Source: Squalus acanthias
Lineage: Eukaryota
Assembly (NCBI GenBank): GCA_030390025.1
Contig: CM059435.1
Location: 87,978,001 to 88,042,000, forward strand
Length of the DNA: 64,000 nt
Direction: 5' to 3'
Positions 3,135-54,500 of the stretch are shown here, piece by piece (positions within the stretch are counted from its first letter, which is position 1; every line of letters begins with the position of its first letter). The notes beneath the pieces were generated by a model, which saw only the letters and a program-made list of their open reading frames with translations, made no database searches and was not told the origin of the DNA. The translations under genes were made by a program, and so were the position numbers.

Positions 3135-3875
3135 TGGAAACGATAATCTGGGACAAAATGAACAGTCACTTGGACAAGTATGGATTAATTAAGGAAAGCC
3201 AGCACGGGTTTGTTGAAGGCAAATCATGTTTAACTAACTTGATTGAGTTTTTTTGATGAGGTAACAGAGAGGGTTGATGAGGGCAATGCGGCTGATGTGG
3301 TGTACATGGACTTCCAAAAAACGTTTGATAAAATGCCACATAATAGGCTTGCCAGCAAAGTTGAAGCCCATGGAATAAAAGGGACAGTGGTAGCATGGAT
3401 ACAAAATTGGCTAAGTGACAGGAAACAGAGAGTAGTGGTGAACGGTTGTTTTTCAGACTGGAGGAAGGTATACAGTGGTGTTCCCCAGGGGTGGGTACTA
3501 GGACCACTGCTTTTCTTGATATACTGTATATTAATGACTTAGACTTGGGTGTACAGGGCACTATTTCAAAATTTGCAGATGACACAAAACTTGGAAGTAT
3601 AGTGAACAGTGAGGAGGATAGTGATAGACTTCAAGAAGACATAGACAGGCTGGTAGAATGGGCGGACACGTGGCAGATGAAATTTATCGCAGAAAAGTGC
3701 GAAGTGATACATTTTGGTAGGAAGAACGAGGAGAGGCAATATAAACTAAAGGCTACAATTCTAAAGGGGGTGCATGTACAGAGAGACCTGGGGGTATATG
3801 TGCACAAATCATTGAAGGTGGCAGGGCAACTTGAGAAAGTGGTTAAAAAGCATACGGGATCCTGGGCTTCATAAA
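3135..3875 (+). mobile_element. CR1 LINE, left part (RT), 5'-truncated and frameshifted
   Basis: SQHGFVEGKSCLTNLIEFF, DVVYMDFQKTFDK, SGVPQG, ISKFADDTKLG. Confidence 0.9.
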
Positions 3876-4829
3876 CGCCTCCACTACTTGCCTTCAAACA
3901 GCCACCTAACCTCAGAAGTACCATCGTTCGCAGCAAATTACCCAGCTTTCAGGATAACAGCGACCACGACACCACACAACCCTGCCATGGCAAACTCTGC
4001 AAGACATGCCAGATCATCAACACAGATACCACCATCACACGTGAGGACACTACCCACCAGGTACATGGTACATACTCATGTGACTCGGCCAACGTTGTCT
4101 ACCTCATACGTTGCAGGAAAGAATGCACCGCGGCATGGTACATCGGCGAGACCATGCAGACACTGAGACAACGTATGAACGAGCACCGCGCAACAATCGC
4201 CAGGCAGGATTGTTACCTCCCAGTCGGGGAACACTTCAGCAGTCAAGGACATTCAGCCTCGGATCTGCGGGTAAGCGTTCTCCAAGGCAACCTTAGAAAC
4301 ACACGACAACGCAAAATCATCGAGCAGAAACTGATAGCCAAGTTCCGCACTCATGAAGACGGTCTCAATCGGGATCTTGGGTTTATGTCACGATACATGA
4401 CGTGATCCGGACTCGAGTCGTCGTTAGCTTGTTCACAGATGTGATTCCCAGTAAAAAAGTAAAAATTTTCCCAGTAAAAAAGTAAAAATTTTAAAGCTTT
4501 TCGTTTTACATACAGACGGCAGCTTTTGACACGTTAGAACCCCTGCGACTACACCTCATTGTCTCAGTTGTATCTTGCTATGTCTTTGATGTGGTACCTT
4601 CCTGGCTGACTTAATTAACTTTATCACACCTCGGCAGATAGTCAGGATGATTTAATTTAGTGGTCTGCAATTGAAAGGTACACATGCTTTGTTTTCTATC
4701 TATATATGCTTTGGCGATTCTGTATCTAATTTACTTCACCTGAGGAAGGAGCAATCGATAGCTCCGAAAGCTTGTGATTTCAAATAAAACTGTTGGACTA
4801 TAACCTGGTGTTGTGCGACCTCTCAATTT
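3875..4829 (+). repeat. 5' pseudo-LTR of the Penelope element
   Basis: Matches 7011-7965 at offset 3136; only two substitutions seen by eye (near 3904 and 4674). Confidence 0.95.
4736..4777 (+). ncRNA. Minimal type I hammerhead ribozyme in the 5' pseudo-LTR
   Basis: UCAC-CUGAGGA-A-GGAGC(aaucgaua)GCUCC-GAAA-GC-UU-GUGA: 4-bp stem I, intact core, 5-bp stem II, palindromic AGCU in place of stem III. Confidence 0.85.
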
Positions 4830-4864
4830 TGTCCACCCCAGTCCAACACCGGCATCTCCGCATC

Positions 4865-7541
4865 ATGACCACTATCGACACCACAAACTGCCGGCTCAAA
4901 GTGGAGAGAATCGCCAAGAAGATCGCGCATATCGACACCGACATCAAGTATCTACAGAGATGCAAGAAAGCAGACAAGATCCCGAAAGGACTACAGATCA
5001 CGAACCCACTCAAGTCGACATACAACACAGACTACGCTGAGAGACTCTGCCGTCGTACCTCTCGCACACTCCTCAACCATCTCGTACACCAGCTCTACAG
5101 CAAACGCCACAACCTCGAAACCAAGATAGAGTCCATGCTCTCAGCCTGTGCTCAGGACACAGCAGACCAGTTACGAGACACCACCAAACAGACGAGGCAA
5201 CGGAACTACGCTGCCTACATGCGCATCAAGAACAGGAAGCTTGAGAAACTCGGCATCACCACCAGCAGCAACCAAGCCTCCCCCGGTACCACGGCTGCAA
5301 CCACAGGGAAGTCCATCGTCAACTTGTCCGACCATACCCTTCAACCAGACGAAATCGAAGTTCTCGCCCTAGGGCTCAAGTTCTGCCCAACCACCAAAAT
5401 GGACCCCATCGGTCTCGCGGCAGACACGGAGGAATTCATCAGGAGAATGAGGCTCCGGGAATACTTCCACAAATCGCAAGATGTCAGCAACAAACCCAAT
5501 GAGACAATCAATGATCCAGAACAGCAGACGGAGGGACTCGCAGTGCAGCAACCGAAGAAAAAAGTCAAACTGGACCCCTCCGGAGGGTCGCTGCCCCAAG
5601 CTTGACATGTATGCTCAAGCTGTCAGGAGATGCATCAACGCCAGATTCATCAGCCGCACTCACAAGACAGTCCAGAATGTCACCCGAGCACAACGCAACG
5701 CCATCCACGCTCTCAAGACCAACCGCAACATTGTCATCAAACCAGCGGACAAAGGAGGAGCCATCGTCATACAGAACAGAACGGACTATTGTAAAGAAGC
5801 ATACCGACAACTGGACAACCAGGAACACTACAGACAGCTACCCGCAGATCCGACCAAAGAACACACCCGCCAACTCAATAGACTGATCAAGACCTTCGAT
5901 CCAGACCTTCAAAACATCCTACGCGCTCTCATCCCACGTACTCCCCGCGTGGGAGACTTCTACTGCCTCCCAAAGATACACAAAGCCAACACACCCGGAC
6001 GTCCTATCGTATCAGGCAATGGAACCCTGTGTGAGAACCTCTCTGGATACGTCGAGGGCATTCTGAAACCCATCGTACAGGGAACCCCCAGCTTCTGTCG
6101 CGACACTACAGACTTCTTACAGAAACTCAGCACCCACGGACCAGTTGAACCAGGAACACTCCTTGCCACGATGGACGTATCGGCACTCTACACCAGTATC
6201 CCCCACGATGACGGCATCGCTACAACAGCCTCAGTACTCAACATCAACAACAGCCAATCTCCAGACGCCATCCTACAACTCATCCGCTTCATCCTTGACC
6301 ACAATGTCTTCACCTTCGACAACCATTTTTTTACCCAAACACACGGAACAGCCATGGGGACCAAATTCGCACCCCAATACGCCAACATCTTCATGCACAA
6401 GTTCGAGCAAGACTTCTTCGCTGCACAGGACCTCCAGCCAACGCTGTACACCAGATACATCGACGACATTTTCTTCCTTTGGACCCATGGCGAAGGATCA
6501 CTGAAAAGACTACACGATAACATAAACAAGTTCCATCCCACCATCAAACTCACCATGGACTACTCCTCAGAATCGGTCTCATTCCTGGACACACGAATCT
6601 CCATCAAAGACGGACACCTCAGCACTTCACTCTACCGCAAGCCCACGGACAACCTCACGATGCTCCACTTCTCCAGCTTCCACCCTAACCATGTTAAAGA
6701 AGCCATCCCCTATGGACAAGCCCTGCGAATACACAGGATCTGCTCAGACGAGGAGGAACGCGATGGACACCTACGGACGCTGAAAAACGCCCTCGTAAGA
6801 ACGGGATATGACGCTCGACTCATCGATCGACAGTTCCGACGGGCCACAGCGAAAAATCGCATAGACCTCCTCAGAAGGCAAACACGGGACACAACCAACA
6901 GGGTACCCTACGTCGTCCAGTACTTCCCCGGAGCGGAGAAACTACGCCATGTTCTTCGCAGCCTTCAACATGTCATCGATGACGACAAACACCTCGCTAA
7001 GGCCATCCCCACGCCTCCACTACTTGCCTTCAAACAGCCGCCTAACCTCAGAAGTACCATCGTTCGCAGCAAATTACCCAGCTTTCAGGATAACAGCGAC
7101 CACGACACCACACAACCCTGCCATGGCAAACTCTGCAAGACATGCCAGATCATCAACACAGATACCACCATCACACGTGAGGACACTACCCACCAGGTAC
7201 ATGGTACATACTCATGTGACTCGGCCAACGTTGTCTACCTCATACGTTGCAGGAAAGAATGCACCGCGGCATGGTACATCGGCGAGACCATGCAGACACT
7301 GAGACAACGTATGAACGAGCACCGCGCAACAATCGCCAGGCAGGATTGTTACCTCCCAGTCGGGGAACACTTCAGCAGTCAAGGACATTCAGCCTCGGAT
7401 CTGCGGGTAAGCGTTCTCCAAGGCAACCTTAGAAACACACGACAACGCAAAATCATCGAGCAGAAACTGATAGCCAAGTTCCGCACTCATGAAGACGGTC
7501 TCAATCGGGATCTTGGGTTTATGTCACGATACATGACGTGA
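4865..7541 (+). CDS. Penelope polyprotein (N-terminal domain, reverse transcriptase, Cys-rich linker, GIY-YIG endonuclease) with one frameshift near 5555-5566
   Basis: ATG at 4865 (MTTIDTTNCRLK...). Second frame has IKPADKGG, LPKIHK, GRPIVS, MDVSALYTSI, GTAMG, RYIDD, CxxxxCxxC linker and VVYLIRC...WYIGET...RMNEH. Confidence 0.9.
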
Positions 7542-7965
7542 TCCGGACTCGAGTCGTCGTTAGCTTGTTCACAGATGTGATTCCCAGTAAAAAAGTAAAA
7601 ATTTTCCCAGTAAAAAAGTAAAAATTTTAAAGCTTTTCGTTTTACATACAGACGGCAGCTTTTGACACGTTAGAACCCCTGCGACTACACCTCATTGTCT
7701 CAGTTGTATCTTGCTATGTCTTTGATGTGGTACCTTCCTGGCTGACTTAATTAACTTTATCACACCTCGGCAGATAGTCAGGATGATTTAATTTAGTGGT
7801 CTGCAATTGTAAGGTACACATGCTTTGTTTTCTATCTATATATGCTTTGGCGATTCTGTATCTAATTTACTTCACCTGAGGAAGGAGCAATCGATAGCTC
7901 CGAAAGCTTGTGATTTCAAATAAAACTGTTGGACTATAACCTGGTGTTGTGCGACCTCTCAATTT
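7011..7965 (+). repeat. 3' pseudo-LTR of the Penelope element (endonuclease coding end plus 3' UTR)
   Basis: Direct repeat of 3875-4829; the ORF track gives the same C-terminal peptide ending at 4405 and 7541. Confidence 0.95.
7872..7913 (+). ncRNA. Minimal type I hammerhead ribozyme in the 3' pseudo-LTR
   Basis: Identical to 4736-4777. Confidence 0.85.
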
Positions 7966-38667: not shown

Positions 38668-39067
38668 TCTGTTTCTCTCTCCACAGATGCTCCCTGACCG
38701 GCTGAATATTTCCAGCATTTTCTGTTTTTATTTCAGATTTCCAGCATCCGCAGTATTTTGCTTTTGTAAAATCCCTCATACATTCACTTTCAAATGTTAA
38801 TTTTGAATTTCAATTGGCTATCTGGCCTACAAAATCCAGCGACTCACCCTGCTGCATTTACCCCATTTCTAATTGCAGTTACATTTCTTATACTGCTGCG
38901 TAAAAGTTCAGCAGACTTGGTGGTTTGGAAGGTTCTGTTCTCAAGGCTGCGCTCTCGAAGGTTGATAAATCCTAAATGGTGGAAGGATCAGCACTGGGAA
39001 CATACCTTTCCAAACCAGCAGGCCTGCCAAATTCAAATGGCTGAATGCAGTGGCATAAGAAATATAA

Positions 39068-39268
39068 GTGAGAAGTCGCACAACACCAGGTTATAGTCCA
39101 ACAGCTTTATTTAAATCACAAGCTTTCGGAGCGCTGCTCCTTCGTCACCTGACGAAGGAGCAGCCGCTCCGAAAGCTTGTGATTTCAAATAAAGCTGTTG
39201 GACTATAACCTGGTGTTGTGCGACTTCTCACTTTTGTCCACCCCAGTCCAACACCGGCATCTCCGCAT
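39068..39268 (+). mobile_element. Non-autonomous Penelope-derived fold-back element
   Basis: Inverted arms 39066-39147 and 39150-39233 homologous to about 4740-4830, then a tail matching 4830-4866. Flanked by a duplication of up to 14 bp, CATAAGAAATATAA (39054-39067 and 39269-39282). Confidence 0.9.
39145..39182 (+). ncRNA. Minimal hammerhead ribozyme within the fold-back element
   Basis: UCAC-CUGACGA-A-GGAGC(agcc)GCUCC-GAAA-GC-UU-GUGA. Core and stems match 4736-4777; only N7 and loop II differ. Confidence 0.8.
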
Positions 39269-42200
39269 CATAAGAAATATAAACAGAGCAACAAAGGTAC
39301 AGCTCCATGGATAAACTAGCCTCTCATCTGAAATCTGCAAAGACAAAATATCAGAGATATTTTATTAACCAAAGCAGAGCAGGAAGGGGAAATCTGGGGA
39401 ACTAAGCCAAGGCTGCCCAAGCAGAGAAGCAATTAAACTCTTAAGTTTTAGCAGATAGAGAACCTAAGCAGGAAGGTGCAGGTGTAAAAGACATTAAGTG
39501 GAGTCCAAATGGCAGAGATATACATAGCTAAGGCAGGGCAATGATGGGCCAAAAGCCTGAAATCTCAGTTCAGTCACTCATCATTCAAGAATTTCAAGTC
39601 TGTGCTCCAAGTGTTAAGAGGGACACCGAGAATTCCAAATACTCAAGATGCCCGGCAAAGGTCTGGGTGCTGCCAAATGCAGAGGTGATTTGTCAGAACT
39701 AGCTTAGCTGGATCCAGAGAAATCTTTTAGGTGAATCATCACAATCCTTCTTCCTAGTGCAACCTCCTTGAATCTCAGCTACAAGAGGGAGATTAGCCAG
39801 CACAAGGCAGGACACAGAATTAGTAACAACCAGAGTCTGTGCTAATATAACACATATATTCAACAGTAAGTACCTCAGAGCGTCCAATACAAGAAACTGA
39901 AAAATAATTCTACAGACAATCTGGTTTTTTTCTCTTTCCACTTCTAAAGACATTTTACTTACTGTCCCAGTTACTTTTTTTTAGATAAAGCATTAAGCAG
40001 CGAGAGTGCATTAAAACCAAGAAGAAACTTGGATTTCAATAGGCTTTGATTGACAGTGATATATTCACAACTGTTAAGATTTACTTTCATTCATCGCTAT
40101 GCTGTTCCAAGAGTTTCATTTTTATTTTAGTGCTGCTACTGATCTATACGTAGGTCAAAGATCTGGGTTTGAAGATCAAATGGTAATGATATGTAAGTGC
40201 AGCCTGGTAACAGGAGTAGATCAGTGATCCAGCTCTGCAAATAGTACTATATAAACTGAGCCAATCCAATTTCATTGGTGCTGGTTTATTTAGCATTTAG
40301 TCACAAGGTTTAATGTTAAATTAAAATCAAATAATTTACAAATAACACCATCATTGTTTACATGTGGCCCACTGTGCTCCATGGGGTGTAACTAAATGGC
40401 CAAAGAGAGAGTTTGGACACCTCTAATGTCATTCATTTGAGTTTATCAAATCACCTTGTGTTGAATTCCAAGCCAAATACACCTTTGTTACTATGCTAGC
40501 TCGGTCCCATGCCAAAACAATTCTTGGCATAGCAAAGCCCTGCAACACGGCCGAGCATTCAAGCATTCCTTATTGCCTAAATAACCCTAAATAATCCATT
40601 ACAGTTTGCAGGCTTGTTCTATCTTCCCATTAACAGGTTGTGTGTGTGTCCAACTGCGGCAATTCTGGAGTTACCAATCTCACGCTATTTCCACTTTTAG
40701 ATGAGTCTTTCCTAATATTAGTACTGCATGGATGATTGAGCTAGATCACAGTGAAATCTACCATCAAGTTAAATTATTATTTTTTAAGAAACGTAATTGT
40801 CACACCTCATGCCCCATCTGAGAGCATGGACAGGCAACCGTCTCCCAGGCCTCTGTCAATGATGGCCTTTAACTAATGGATGCACACTATTTGGCTAGTT
40901 CAACTCATCCACCAATTTTCCTTCTTTACAAAGAATCAAGACATACCAATCAAGCTTAGAAACTCAGAGTTCGGTCATTGTAGACACAAACCTGCACCCC
41001 TTAGCACAGCAAACTGATACAATAATAATGCTGTGTTAACAAACCATATACAATCACAGATTACCTTTAGAGAGACAGTACTAATATGCAAGGCCTCAGT
41101 ACAAAACATAATTTTTACCTCTGCTGAACAAGTTGGCAATTTACAAAATTACCAGGTATTTCAGATAAATCGCGCTCCTCTTTTCTTTTTCATGATCAAA
41201 TTGATTCCAACGAAGAAAAAAAGTGTTTTTAAAAATTGTACAGCAACGTGAAAACAATTCAGTGAAGTTACCTGACCTGCCAACCAAAAGCTAAATAATT
41301 TGGTAGATATTAATGAATAAAATATTGGGAGGTTTTATTTTCTGGCTTAATGGTTTTCTTCAAAGTCTGTGAAATGTGTATGTATAAAATGAAATCATGG
41401 TTCAAATGCATGAAAATGACATGGAAATAATGAATGCAGTGAAGACAGCTGACTTGCTGGCCAAAAATTGAATAATGTGTGTGTGAGGTACAAACTAATC
41501 AAATCTTGGACGTTTCATTGATGTGCTGGCTCAATGCTTTCTTTCAGAATCTGTGTAATGTGTACATATAACATTCAACAATGCCTCAATCACACAAGGC
41601 AGACATGGAAGTAATAAATTAATTTGGTGAGAGCACCTGACCATGGCCGCAAATTAAGTAATTTGTTTTCTGCAAAGTAGAATGAATGAAATCTTAGAGG
41701 TTTTGTTCGTATGCTGCCCAATACCTTTCCTCAAAGTCTGAATAAATATGAAATTAAATAATAATCCCTGAGTGTGCAAAGCAGGCATGGAAATAGTTAA
41801 TTGAGAGTGCCCTGATACAAGTCTTGAATTCCCATTTGCAATACCACTGGAGATCAACTAATATTAAAAGTCTTATACATAGCACTGTCACACACTTTCC
41901 ATAATACTTTTAGGTAAAACACTGAATTATAGATACAGTTATGCTAGCACACATGGTCAGGTCATTCTTCCCACAATTAACTCCCCTCAGCCCTGGTGTC
42001 CCCAAACACACTCTTCCATTTCCTCAAGTGCTGCAGGACACAAAGAAGTTAAAACAAACTAAAATTAAATGAACAGCTCCAAGTTGGATATAAAATGTAG
42101 GAAAGTTTATTCGTTTTAAAACAGTGATTCTTACAATTAGGGTCTCTTGACGTAATATATTACAGATGCAAAATAATGTTCCAGCTCATTTCCTCCAATA

Positions 42201-42765
42201 ACATATCCGTTTCACAATAACTACAAATTCTTAATTGACGAACAAAATCAGAGTCCTCGGCAACCTGAACTCTAACTGAACCCACCATTCAAGAATCCCG
42301 AGCAATACCTTCTATTCTTAAAGGGACACACACCTACATTCTATTTTACATTGCATAATTATAAAAACAGCACATCCTGACTTAGCTCCATGGGAGATTT
42401 GCCATTAATATATAAACGAGCTATGCTACGTTCTTCCATTGATGGTTGCTATTTTCTCTCACCTCCACAGCACTAATCCAAAAGGCTGTGATGAGCACTT
42501 TCTCCCCAAACACTTAGTTACAGTAAACTTCTGCACTCATGAAATTCCCCACCAAGAACCCTCCATTTAATCCAACCTTCAATCATGCGCATAGTTATCA
42601 AGGCGGGTAGCATTTAAGTATAAAATGGTTATCTAACCTTAATTTGAAATTAAAAAAAACGATTCTATTTTACAGCATGCACTAAATAAAGTTGGAAACT
42701 GGTATTAGAAAGTATCCGCAACCCAGGACATAATTTTCGATTAATAAACCAGATAACATGCTTAC

Positions 42766-43078
42766 CTTTGGGCATCTTCCGTATAATGTTAAAAACTGTG
42801 CTCTGTTCAATTAGTTCTTTTGCTCTGAAAAAGTGCATGGCTGGTGGGAATTTACCAGTTTCCATTCCATCGACTATTTCCTTTATTTTTACTTTCTTAA
42901 GTATATCATTAACTTGGAGTTCTTTTTTGGTCGATAGTAGATTACCGCCTGTAGATTCGAACTGCTCCAGTTTCATCAAATGATCTCGGTCGGTCGGAAT
43001 TGGAAACGTTCGACACACAGCAAATAAACAAAAGACTGAAAGCACAGCGGTCTCTCTTTTGAAATTTGCTGTATTCAT
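42766..43078 (-). CDS. ADA2: Adenosine deaminase 2, first coding exon (signal peptide plus N-terminal region)
   Basis: ATG at 43078 gives MNTANFKRETAVLSVFCLFAVCRTFPIP...FPPAMHFFRAKELIEQSTVFNIIRKMPK-G, the ADA2/ADGF 'PPxMHFF...MPKG' signature. GTAAG donor follows 42766; 313 nt, phase 1. Confidence 0.95.
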
Positions 43079-43129
43079 TTTCAAAAATAAACCACACGGC
43101 TGTGTACTCAAAGTTAGTCAAGATCAAGT

Positions 43130-49314: not shown

Positions 49315-51567
49315 ATAGAACATAGAACAGTACAGCACAGTACAGGCCCTTCGGCCCTCGATGTTGTGCCGAGCATTGTCCGAGACCAAGATCAAGCTAT
49401 CACACTCCCTGTCACTCTGGTGTGCTCCATGTGCTTATCCAATAACCGCTTGAAAGTTCCTAAAGTGTCCGACTCCACTATCACAGCAGGCAGTCCATTC
49501 CACACCCCAACCACTCTCTGAGTAAAGAATCTACCTCGGACATCCCTTCTATATCTCCCCCCATGCACCTTATAGCTATGCCCCCTTGTAACAGCTGCCT
49601 CTACCCGAGGAAATAGTCTCTGAACATCCACTCTATCTATCCCCCTCATCATCTTATAAACCTCTATTAAGTCGCCTCTCATCCTCCTCCGCTCTAAAGA
49701 GAAAAGCCCCAACTCCCTCAATCTTTCCTCATAAGACCTCCCCCCCAAACCAGGCAGCATCCTGGTAAATCTCCTTTGCACTCTTTCCAATGCTTCCACG
49801 TCCTTCCTATAGTGAGGTGACCAGAACTGCACACAATATTCCAAATGTGCTCTCACCAAGGTCCTGTACAGTTGCAGCATAACCTCACGGTTCTTAAACT
49901 CAAACCCTCTGTTAATAAACGCCAACACACCATAGGCCTTCTTTACTGCTCTATCCACTTGAGTGGCAACCTTCAGAGATCTGTGGATATGAACCCCCAG
50001 ATCCCTCTGCTCCTCCACGTTCCTCAGAACCCTGCCGTTGACCCTGTAATCCTTATTCACATTTGCCCTACCAAAATGAATCACCTCGCACTTATCAGGG
50101 TTAAATTCCATCTGCCATTTTTCGGCCCAGCTCTGCATCCTATCAATGTCTCTTTGCAGCCGACAACTGCCCTCCACCTCATCCACTACTCCATCAATCT
50201 TGGTGTCATCAGCAAATTTACTGATCCACCCTTCAGTCCCCTCCTCCAAGTCATTGATAAAAATCACAAACAGCAGAGGACCCAGCACCGACCCCTGTGG
50301 CACACCGCTGGTAACTGGTCTCCAGTCCGAAAATGTTCCATCCACCACCACCCTCTGCCTTCTATGAGATAGCCAGTTACTTATCCAATCGGCCAAATTT
50401 CCCTCTATCCCACAACTCCTTACTTTCTTCATGAGACGACCATGGGGAACCTTATCAAACGCCTTACTAAAATTCATGTATACGACATCAACTGCTCTAC
50501 CTTCATCTACACACTTAGTTACCTCCTCAAAGAATTCAATCAAATTTGTTAGGCAAGACTTACCCTTCACGAATCCGTGTTGACTATCCCTGATTAAGTT
50601 ACCCCTTTCCAAATGGTCATAAATCCTATCCCTCAGGACCTTTTCCATTATCTTACCAACCACCGAAGTAAGACTAACCGGCCTATAATTACCAGGGTCA
50701 TTCCTATTTCCTTTCTTGAAGAGAGGAACAACATTCGCCACTCTCCAGTCCTCTGGCACCATCCCTGTGGACAGTGAGGACCCAAAGATCAAAGCCAGAG
50801 GCTCTGCAATCTCCTCCCTTGCCTCCCAAAGAATCCTAGGATATATCCCATCTGGCCCAGGGGACTTATCGACCCTCAGGTTCTTCAAAATTGCTAAAAC
50901 ATCTTCCCTCAGAACATCTACCACCTCCAGCCTATCCACCTTTATCACACTCTCATCCTCAAGAAGATGGCCCCTCTCCTCGGTGAACACTGACGAAAAG
51001 TATTCATTCATCACCTCTCCTATCTCTTCTGACTCCATGCACAAGTTCCCACTACTGTCCTTGACCGGCCCTACCCTCACCCTGGTCATTCTTTTATTTC
51101 TCACATAAGAGTAAAAAGCCTTGGGGTTTTTCTTGATCCGACCCGCCAAGGACTTCTCATGCCCCCGCCTAGCTCTCCTAAGCTCTTTTTTTAGCTCATT
51201 CCTTGCTACCTTGTACCCCTCAATCGACCCAACTGAACCTTGTTTACTCATCCTTACATACGCTTCCTTTTTCCTCTTGACTAGACATTCAACCTCTTTT
51301 GTGAACCATGGTTCTCTCACTCGGCCATTTCCTCCCTGCCTGACAGGGACATACCTATCAAGGACACGCAGTAATTGCTCCATGAAAAAGCTGCACTTTT
51401 CGTTTGTGCCTTTCCCTGATAGTTTCTGTTCCCATCTTATACTCCCTAATTCTTGCCTAATCGCATCATAATTACCCCTCCCCCAATTATAAACCCTGCC
51501 CTGCCGTATGGCCCTATCCCTCTCCATTGCAATAGTGAAAGTTACCGAATTGTGGTCACTATCTCCA
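49315..51567 (-). mobile_element. Young 5'-truncated CR1 LINE with uninterrupted 711-aa ORF2 segment
   Basis: ORF 49392-51527: KSPGPDGI, NYRPVSLTS, GVPQGSVLGP, FADD. TTCTATG-type tail; inserted into an L2 3' fragment. Confidence 0.95.
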
Positions 51568-54500
51568 CTTAGCTAGCACTTTGAATGTAGAAAAATGCCT
51601 GAAGGCAATTCAGAGGTGTAATGGAAAAAATGGATGCTGAGCTAAAGGAGGATGACCAAACATTAGGTGAAGCAGATGGGGCTTAAAAGGGGTGGGGGAA
51701 ATCCAGAGCAAGAGGCCTAGGCAGCTAACGGCATGGCTACCAGTGGTGGGGCGAGTGGAGGGAAGGATACACAAGAGGCTGGCGTCAGAGGAAGAGCGAG
51801 GTGGAGGGGGGGGAGGTTGTAGTGCTGGAAGAGCAAGGGCATGGAGGGAATTAAACAAAAGGATGAGCATTGTAAAATTTGAAGCATTGGGAGACCAGCA
51901 GACTGGCAAGGATACGGGTGCGGGGCAGGATATAGGCAGCAGAGTTTTGGATGAGCTGTTTGCAGTAATTTTCCTTTCCAAATACTTCTTGCACCACTGT
52001 ATCGAATCAATCCATCCCAAGAAAATATACTTTATCGGGTCATAAAATGCAATTTCTAGTTAAAATAAAATTTGAGCACGGCAAAGAGTGTTTCGGGTAA
52101 GAAATGTGCACACTAATGAGCAGTTATGCAGATTGGCAAGTCAGTACTTCTACACTGCATTTAAGCAAGAAAGAGGAATTTGTATATTAGAACACAGATG
52201 GTAGGAATGCTACCGGAAGCTAAAGGTGCAAATTTATCTTGTGTGGTATTATATTGAAGAGAAAAAAAGAAAAACAATTTCCAGTGTAAACTGATTACAA
52301 TTCAGTTTCTGCAAGTGTCCTTTGAATCTTGTTTCTGCAATATAGTACATCTTTTGGAGTATTATTTCATGCCATCTGATCTATACTCTGGCTTTGAAGG
52401 AGAGTATTATGCAAATTCTGGATGGATCAGATTCAGCTCTGATCAATAATGATCTGAATTGAATTTGATGAAACATATAACTGAGGCGTTGCGTAGAATT
52501 ATTAAACCATTTTTCAAGAGTGCTATTTAACAGGTTTGCTATGCTTAGAATTAGTTTAGTTTATTTTCCATTGTTTTCCTCTGAGATTTAACTACATTTT
52601 AGAAAAGACACTGCTGTAAACAGAGTGGATTATCCAGATGTGTTGTGGATAGAGTATACCCAAGAGTATAGAGCATAATAAGGGTAATGCTTGATAACAA
52701 GTGATGGAGGTGTTAAACACTTTGTCAAAGGCATCTAGATCTTTAACCATTTGATAGTTTATATTTATATATGTAATGTAATAAATATTTTTTTAGAAAA
52801 TATTACATGTGTATTGTAACTGAATGTTGAGCTTTACAGCAGGTAAACACTAATTGACTATGTTCAATTGGCTTAGGTGTTCCCTTGACTTGCCAGATTT
52901 GTAGTCGATTAGTCATGACCGTGAACAGTGGTTAGTCATTGAGGTGTTGTGTAGTGCTAACACTGACTGTGTGACATGCTGGCCCTTATGTTCCTTTTAT
53001 TGAGTTGAACACAAATTAACTGGCGTCTCTTGACAGTTTATAGTAACCAAAGCTCCACTTTGCTGGCGCGTGGCCAGTAACTAAAAGACAACCAACTATC
53101 TTATTCAAGGTTGAGTGGTGTTATTTTAACTTGTTGGCCTTCAATGCATATAAGGATGACCTGAAATATCAACGTTATTTTTTAAAGTGTACTCATGCTT
53201 TTTTATTTTTCAGTAATTTGTTTTTTGTGTGTGTGTTAGTTAGTTACTAGAGGGAAGATTGTTATAAATTCTTCATCCTGTTTAACCTTCATGTATCGCC
53301 AACTTTGGTGTCACGAAACTTCAAATGAATTGATTTCCTTTGGATCAATACCTGCTTGTAGTTGCATATCTAAACAACAACTTGCATACACAAACAAAGG
53401 ATAGCATGATGTTTCAGAGTGTCAGTGATCAATACATCATGTCACCTCAATCCAAAACCAGGATGTGAATGTGCTCAATAGCTTGAAGGGCTACGAAAAA
53501 CAGTTGAGCTTTGCATTGTCAGCTGAAGTAGATCGAGTATGTTACTGCTACCTCTTCTCATCCAGTATCTTCCTTTACACAAAGTCCAAAGTTATTTCCA
53601 GCATTCTCTTGTTGACGGGCATAAAAACAAGCCGCTGTTCAAAAAGCATGACATCTTTCCTAGAGATTTATATATGCATTAGTAACTATTGGAATATTCA
53701 GAATTATCAAGAGTATATAGGCACCGTCTTCCTGGTCACAGGTTCTTCGCCCCCTCCCCAAAAAAAGTCAGTTTAAATTTTGGTTTTGGTAACTCTTGTT
53801 CTTGCCTTGCAGCTTAACTGTACCATTGATGAAACAGAAATACCTGGTTATTTTAATTTAATTTTATTTATGGGTGGGTGTATGTAGGTAGTGAAGAGTA
53901 TTGATTATTTAAAATGGGTCAGTTTTTCCAGAGAGTATAGTCACTAATGCCCATGTACTGAGAATTTTGACAGTTAAATTACTCCGTACCACTGGGCATT
54001 CCTCCTCTAGTTTTAGGCTTGGATGGTTTACTCACACTTGTACCATAATTAATACAAGTCCTATTTGTCCAGAATAATTACTGCAGGGACTTGCAGTGTG
54101 AGAACCAAACTGACCTCGGCTGGCTAGGCCTAGAGTGCAGTGCCTTTCTGCAGTTGGACTTGCTGAGCTTTTGAGGAACCTGTGTGGAAAACCACTTGTA
54201 TGTTCAAAGGTAGAACTTAACCCTGCAAGTGTTGCGGTGCGGCAGCAATAAGCAGTTCAGGAGCTCTTTTATTTAACATCCGCAGCTTTATTTTATTAGC
54301 TGGAGTGCGCAGCTTCTCAATGAAAGGAGGCTGCCATAAAAGTCTTTTTAAATTGAGCCTGGAAGAAATGGTCAGCAATTTGCTAACTTGGTAACTATTG
54401 TAGCACACATGAGGTCATACTATGGGTTTGCTTGGGCTGTGTTTTTATTTATTTTTCCTCTGGTTGAAGTATAATATTACCTTTTTTTTATAAGCTGAAG

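Follow-up and report, generated by a model that had tools for sequence, protein, structure and literature searches.

A short head-to-head hairpin in Squalus acanthias as a probable minimal insertion of a Penelope-like element

Palindromic Penelope repeats have reportedly been recorded in Repbase, which a literature search could not confirm. In LINE-1 elements, twin priming, in which both target strands prime on the element RNA and the two cDNAs join by microhomology, leaves an inversion inside the target duplication; it is a minority event, with the second primer at variable internal sites and copied segments that mostly do not overlap. For Penelope-like elements (PLEs) that carry an endonuclease (EN+), the insertion unit described in the covered sections of PMC8557442 and PMC3846280 consists of a pLTR, an adjacent inverted and 5'-truncated copy, a tail of 30-40 bp at one end and a target duplication, and both sources name the origin of the inverted pLTRs and one-sided tails as unresolved. 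Head-to-head palindromic junctions have been ascribed to self-priming on an antisense template, a matter that the source itself calls open (PMC3846280). In vitro work on an Anolis element has shown that both strands are nicked and extended and that two reverse transcription start sites bound the tail; ribozyme cleavage was dispensable and the protein is predicted to form a dimer (PMC11167929). Dual hammerhead motifs lying 100-700 bp apart on opposite strands are described for Schistosoma (PMC4209133). PLE run-off at the RNA start, a cap-derived G and double priming were not found in the literature searched, which included part of PMC5753468 and had subscription papers and Repbase Reports outside its scope.

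The window analysed here is a stretch of 64,000 nucleotides of the Squalus acanthias genome. It contains a hairpin at 39054-39282 and a related long element, and pLTR positions are numbered with A4733 of the long element as +1. The features are as follows.

3875..7945, plus strand: related long element, a partial tandem, with RT (PF00078) and C-terminal GIY-YIG (PF01541) domains
4701..4737, plus strand: TATA-like box (4701) and initiator-like motif (4731-4737), with A4733 as the putative RNA start
39054..39067, plus strand: left target-site duplication, 14 bp at maximum, core about 12 bp
39066..39147, minus strand: inverted arm, 82 bp, pLTR end from +9 to the no-tail end (about +97), by sequence comparison
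39145..39182, plus strand: minimal type I hammerhead motif, read from the sequence against the min-HHR description in the covered part of PMC4209133; stem I 39145-39148/39179-39182; core 39149-39155, then an extra A; stem II 39157-39161/39166-39170; GAAA; 2-nt palindromic stem III loop; predicted cut after 39178 (+41/+42)
39148..39149, no strand: CC spacer, the centre of the native imperfect palindrome TCA-CC-TGA (+4 to +11), from the sequence
39150..39233, plus strand: direct arm, 84 bp, the same pLTR segment in sense, by sequence comparison
39234..39271, plus strand: PLE tail, 35-38 bp, stopping at the position of the ORF start codon, by sequence comparison
39269..39282, plus strand: right target-site duplication, by sequence comparison

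The original prediction described an inverted repeat of 82 and 84 bp with a CC spacer and two single-base indels, a fold-back at TCA-CC-TGA and a tail that stops at the ORF start codon, and all of these were borne out. The arms (39066-39147 and 39150-39233) are exact reverse complements but for the two single-base indels, and the tail ends where the ATG stands in the large element (4865-4867), with an ambiguity (39268-39271) that arises because CAT is common to tail and duplication. One correction should be added: the 8-mer is already present in the parent at 4736-4743, so that the fold-back lies on a native imperfect palindrome. A duplication of up to 14 bp had also been claimed. The 14-mer at 39054-39067 does recur at 39269-39282, with no further copy in the 64-kb window, but the mode for the family is 12 bp and the 14 bp include a chance overlap with the element ends. 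The inverted arm lies directly beside the direct arm, with a single tail and a short duplication, which are the features of an EN+ PLE insertion unit. A search of the species' own genome gave no empty site carrying the duplication only once, and no contig from four further runs spanned the flanks.

A hammerhead core, stems I and II and the palindromic remnant of stem III are together present in the direct arm only. On its own strand the core of the inverted arm begins with G in place of C3, and the motif is therefore broken. An Rfam scan of the window returned no hammerhead match and only two weak MIR396 matches, which are due to the hairpin. It had been stated that the ribozyme differs from that of the large element only at N7 and loop II, and comparison with the 5' pLTR of that element agrees (N7 from G to C, loop II from 8 nt to 4 nt); three more substitutions all lie downstream of the hammerhead motif. 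The closeness of the fold-back to the ribozyme would be best explained by the ribozyme beginning 3 nt after the likely transcription start.

The long element comprises a 5'-truncated ORF end, a pLTR, an ORF (window 4865-7541) split over two overlapping frames (4865-5605 and 5451-7541) and a pLTR without a tail. Its two repeats are near-identical and its ORF is split, and the element thus appears young but likely inactive. It belongs to a sister subfamily (N7=G) and is not the direct source of the hairpin. A Cys-rich motif (C-x4-C-x2-C) lies between the RT and GIY-YIG domains of its ORF; such a linker motif points to Neptune/Nematis and not to Poseidon (PMC8557442, sections covered), and this suggests that the element is of the Neptune/Nematis type. 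An AT-rich site of a CR1/L2-like LINE has been hit repeatedly by this PLE family in both orientations (L103, L112, L133, L135, L140, L149, L153, L167, L285, L287, L292), and the window's long element is also at that site (window 3862-3874 and 7944-7960), which appears to be a target hot spot inside another repeat. Insertions of different subfamilies also adjoin one another or are nested (L074/L075 at G000:C1:889247-889469, L161, L124/L125), suggesting that PLE element ends are themselves targets.

An exon-like frame at 42665-43114 on the minus strand matches PF08451 (adenosine deaminase N-terminal domain), and a second exon-like frame at 16935-17318, without a Pfam match, presumably belongs to the same adenosine-deaminase gene. 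An intron of this minus-strand gene is the likely site of the hairpin, which would form a 168-nt double-stranded stem in the pre-mRNA. Elsewhere in the window, 49392-51572 on the minus strand holds an uninterrupted 726-aa RT frame of an apparently young LINE, which we take to be of CR1/L2 type. In itself the hairpin is an ordinary and probably inert intronic insertion of known shape.

The hairpin is not a one-off event. Genome-wide, the exact 26-base pattern of its junction occurs at 874 loci and the reversed control pattern at none, and uniqueness of the junction, which would have spoken against a recurring product, can be set aside. The same genome holds 38,822 PLE tail copies and 36,949 hammerhead cores, and the same-junction loci correspond to about 2% of the tail copies (874/38,822). 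Frequencies were taken from an unbiased sample, namely the first 90 of 100 tail matches listed (contig C1, 0-7 Mb), with both arms mapped; removal of L147, a segmental duplicate of L146, left 89 insertions. At least 67 of these 89 have a detectable inverted arm, with variable junctions, and of the remaining 22, roughly half are long copies that extend beyond the stretch examined. The junction of this hairpin is found in 2 of the 89, in line with its genome-wide share. Duplications of 12-14 bp flank 50 of the 65 two-arm insertions scored in this sample. Among the same-junction loci (the first 90 of 100 matches listed), the duplication is 12 bp in 32 and 11-14 bp in 63, exactly one tail is present in 89, and all 90 are single head-to-head pairs without tandem units. 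The original view that the hairpin is the product of a Penelope-like RT/endonuclease, with its own target duplication, is supported. Local clustering of subfamilies was considered and rejected, as two variant patterns (2,303 and 472 matches) are both spread genome-wide. Near-identical arm and tail sequence is also present in contigs of four other organisms (X21-X24), from which the PLE family appears to be common to related species.

The 5' ends of the arms (n=156; ends past about -200 are limited by the reference length) include 23 at +1/+2 and 64 in +1..+20, together with 14 in -10..-1, none in -20..-11 and a single end in +40..+44, around the predicted cut site. Counted without a matched upstream control step, 36,949 cores genome-wide reach +4, 29,740 reach +1 and 24,607 reach -2. 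A4733 stands in the initiator-like motif, 32 nt below a TATATAT. Of 17 reference copies, 15 have this box at -27 to -34, and one of the two exceptions is too short to hold it. Loose contig ends at 4733 in two runs are consistent with the DNA pile-up, these being ends of contigs and not of RNAs. On this DNA evidence, A4733 is likely the RNA start. A similar pair of TATA and TCACT motifs is described for rotifer pLTRs (PMC3846280, sections covered) and a TATA-less, internal promoter for D. virilis (PMC2377424, sections covered). A splice acceptor at +1, as described for the D. virilis motif in the covered part of PMC4209133, was rejected because no AG precedes +1 in any reference copy printed.

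Arms that are joined at +1/+1 with one base between them gave 491 matches, with most loci counted twice. Long copies of the N7=G subfamilies all have T at genomic position -1 (33/33), yet the central pair at blunt +1/+1 junctions is G:C in 38/48 loci and A:T in 10/48. Three same-junction loci on contig C19 are a segmental triplication with identical flanks, and with one triplicated locus counted once the share of G:C central pairs becomes 36/46. All of the 16 G:C and 4 A:T blunt-junction loci that were fetched have genuine head-to-head arms. In copies with N7=C or T, most of which have C at genomic position -1, a G:C centre was seen in 46/46 among the loci listed, and random A/T filler must therefore be rare. 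Untemplated 5' G in LINE-1 work has been read as the reverse-transcribed cap (PMC9341517, sections covered), and the non-genomic G:C at these blunt junctions is likely a cap signature. A bias of the RT for C at any RNA or template end would give the same G, and the RNA would end at +1 either way. Several other junctions (L094, L096, L104, L127, L176, L178) hold fillers made of repeated pieces of the first 5-20 bases of the RNA, as would result if the RT had jumped repeatedly to the 5' end of its template RNA.

We consider it probable that the hairpin is a minimal insertion of an endonuclease-bearing PLE, in which both cut target strands prime on capped sense RNA and reverse transcription runs off the 5' end of this RNA, giving two short cDNAs that are then joined head to head. 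The GIY-YIG domain would make a 12-nt staggered cut, and one target 3' end would prime at the tail end and the other about 38 nt upstream, corresponding to the two internal start sites that the Anolis element uses in vitro. In this PLE family the distance of these sites from the RNA start would be as short as about 95 and 135 nt. Where the 5' pLTR copy is used, two run-off cDNAs would result, often with an extra C copied from the cap, whereas long insertions would reflect priming at the downstream pLTR of a read-through RNA. The cDNA 3' ends would then anneal at the first self-complementary patch, TCA-GG-TGA, flaps would be trimmed and gaps filled, and the central GG/GG mismatch could resolve either way, placing the tail on either side of CC. 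In each copy, one arm ends at the tail and the other at the no-tail site, and the arms are of the same subfamily. Arm lengths are correlated across the 67 two-arm insertions (35 short/short, 21 long/long, 11 mixed; p=3e-8), which agrees with a single pLTR copy of the RNA serving both primings. TCA-CC-TGA (+4..+11) is indeed the first self-complementary patch below +1, others lying at +18..+22, +35/36 and +43. The parental T at +3 is kept on the GG side in 14/90 same-junction loci and on the CC side in 0/90; this pattern and the occurrence of the tail on either side are as symmetric annealing predicts. Against this stands a duplex calculation, which for the parent end with N7=G favoured CCT-C-AGG, a neighbouring register (-4.9 kcal/mol), over TCA-GG-TGA. 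The product would most likely be a dead end, since one of the ribozymes has a broken core and each arm is paired to the other.

Other origins have to be weighed against double priming. The original prediction offered snap-back priming at the ribozyme, in which one cDNA, or an antisense RNA as in the covered part of PMC3846280, folds at TCA-CC-TGA and copies itself into the second arm. It is in keeping with such a process that the junction is a native imperfect palindrome, that a second palindrome, AAGCTT (+36), is likewise the junction in 2/89 sampled insertions, and that arms within one copy usually match. However, tail-primed snap-back would always place the tail on the CC side, and the same-junction loci carry it on the GG side in 54 cases and on the CC side in 35, although later recombination between the arms could flip the centre. 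Nor could an untailed arm made by snap-back outreach the tailed arm in the 5' direction, as it does in 32/67 two-arm insertions (the tailed arm reaches further in 15, and 20 are equal or unresolved). The additional G at +1 suggests the end of a sense RNA, arm ends do not pile up at the cleavage site, and a 2-nt loop is too tight for a TCA/TGA stem; we regard snap-back as very unlikely, and that part of the original prediction is not supported. Inverted repeats are unstable, and in longer ones the centre might have been removed after insertion, through cutting of a cruciform and repair by microhomology at TCA/TGA, where such microhomology is present. Such a collapse is highly improbable, as it leaves the sharp +1 edge and the non-genomic G unexplained, and very young copies identical to the long element (L047, L058) already show such junctions. 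Least probable of these readings is that the ribozyme sets the pile-up, with self-cleavage or structural stalling defining the RNA or cDNA end. The junction does lie at the boundary of stem I and the core, and the motif is conserved, but cleavage would end cDNAs at +41/+42, where arm ends are nearly absent (1/156, as given above), and an RT moving 3' to 5' would be halted on reaching the structure from its 3' side, not once past it; in the covered sections of PMC11167929, moreover, cleavage is dispensable and no RNA-seq reads end at the cut site.

The original prediction also proposed a retrozyme-like non-autonomous family. In a self-propagating family of this kind, whether retrozyme- or MITE-like, most of the 874 loci would descend from a small number of master hairpins, transcribed in full and put back into the genome by the PLE protein. 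A DNA search with the hairpin returned near-full-length hairpins in 40/40 scored matches, with 96-100% identity (30 loci from this search, chosen by similarity to the query, were left out of frequency claims), and a hairpin template could also yield both tail orientations. In addition, two other genome-unique junctions each occur in two separate insertions with their own duplications, pairs that were noticed because both members lie inside the 7-Mb sample. L181 and L182 (G000:C1:2938293, 3041881) share a junction with an 8-base filler, of which the genome has exactly these two copies. They lie 103 kb apart, their flanks differ, each has a 12-bp duplication of its own, and their tails are attached to opposite arms. 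L183 and L184 (G000:C1:3433145, 3966997) share a junction at unrelated sites 534 kb apart, each with its own duplication, plus one segmental duplicate. Junctions can thus be handed on from one locus to another. Either a transcribed hairpin is re-transposed or neighbouring insertions undergo gene conversion, which explains these pairs equally well, and such passage may account for some of the 874. A few masters are nevertheless an unlikely source of most of them. The junction is present in nine concordant arm haplotypes and must have had at least nine origins; there are no fixed differences between left and right arms; and junctions form a continuum of which this one makes up 2% of insertions. 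The 76 same-junction loci on contig C1 are unclustered (11 gaps < 600 kb, 11.8 expected), with 0/11 near pairs near-identical and neighbours not more alike. The short-loop subfamilies, to which the window hairpin belongs, have ORF-bearing long copies (L156, L166).

Within single copies, a long-loop arm is paired with a long-loop arm in 17/17 and a short-loop with a short-loop arm in 64/64 scorable cases, and for a second marker 4/65 short-loop copies are discordant, where 31 would be expected from random pairing. The loop II alleles differ between the arms in 8/78 copies, the window hairpin being a further case. Both arms would hence usually come from one source and sometimes from two, and the nine haplotypes, with arms usually matching within a copy, suggest that the junction mostly forms anew. 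A distinct retrozyme-like family is not supported: neither head-to-tail tandem units nor fixed-unit monomers were seen, the junction is one of many, and the nine haplotypes mirror the ORF-bearing subfamilies and are common with their long copies (a comparison of haplotypes and not a tree), which gives no lineage apart. Likewise, the asymmetric tail on either arm, ragged ends and variable junctions differ from a MITE or fold-back DNA transposon.

More generally, we lean towards the view that PLEs integrate by obligatory double-ended priming on capped sense RNA, with one strand priming at the tail and the other at the no-tail site and the cDNAs joined head to head; about 40% of insertions of this family (35/89) would be products of a double run-off, with ends at the cap or slightly below it, and the genome would record the cap as an extra G. 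Whole hairpins may in addition be copied to nearby sites by a minor route. If this view is true, double-ended priming replaces antisense self-priming as the source of inverted pLTRs and one-sided tails. The value of the hairpin lies in the data that it opens up, as its sibling insertions record how PLEs likely integrate: about 39,000 young insertions are available, and their junctions discriminate between sense and antisense templates, one and two primings, and a cap or a ribozyme end. The question of PLE integration is also testable with the existing in vitro system. For annotators, it should be noted that such hairpins will be mis-called MITEs, microRNA precursors (as in the weak MIR396 matches) or retrozymes.

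The shape of the hairpin is already known, being that of the canonical PLE unit as described in the covered sections of PMC8557442 and PMC3846280. Head-to-head copies, a single tail, a duplication and a palindrome at the inverted junction are common to both, as are TATA and initiator-like motifs in the pLTR and a parent with RT and C-terminal GIY-YIG domains. The hairpin differs in that it holds only the last 95-135 nt, without ORF sequence, and in that one junction is found 874 times. With Poseidon of Anolis carolinensis (PAc; PMC11167929, sections covered) it has in common that targets are AT-rich and, on the reading favoured here, that both strands are nicked and extended, that there are two internal RT starts and that cleavage is not required; the PAc start sites lie inside the ORF, whereas here the tail ends at the start codon, and head-to-head joining and run-off products are not reported in the covered sections of that study. 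The hammerhead resembles the min-HHRs of metazoan PLE pLTRs in its short stem I, the extra base before stem II and the palindromic stem III remnant (PMC4209133, part covered), but, unlike the separate Schistosoma motifs, the two motifs here overlap at the junction, one of them without C3. Animal non-LTR retrozymes are also short, non-coding, hammerhead-bearing and derived from PLE pLTRs (bioRxiv 10.64898/2026.07.22.740005, in the part covered). They consist of head-to-tail tandem units or monomers, whereas the hairpin is a tailed head-to-head pair with a junction that varies, and the shark retrozyme families of that source might include such hairpins. Compared with LINE-1 twin priming, both starts are fixed here, the two arms are copies of one and the same sequence, and most insertions take the form of an inverted pair. 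In place of the antisense self-priming put forward in the covered sections of PMC3846280, the evidence presented here favours a capped sense template and two target primings.
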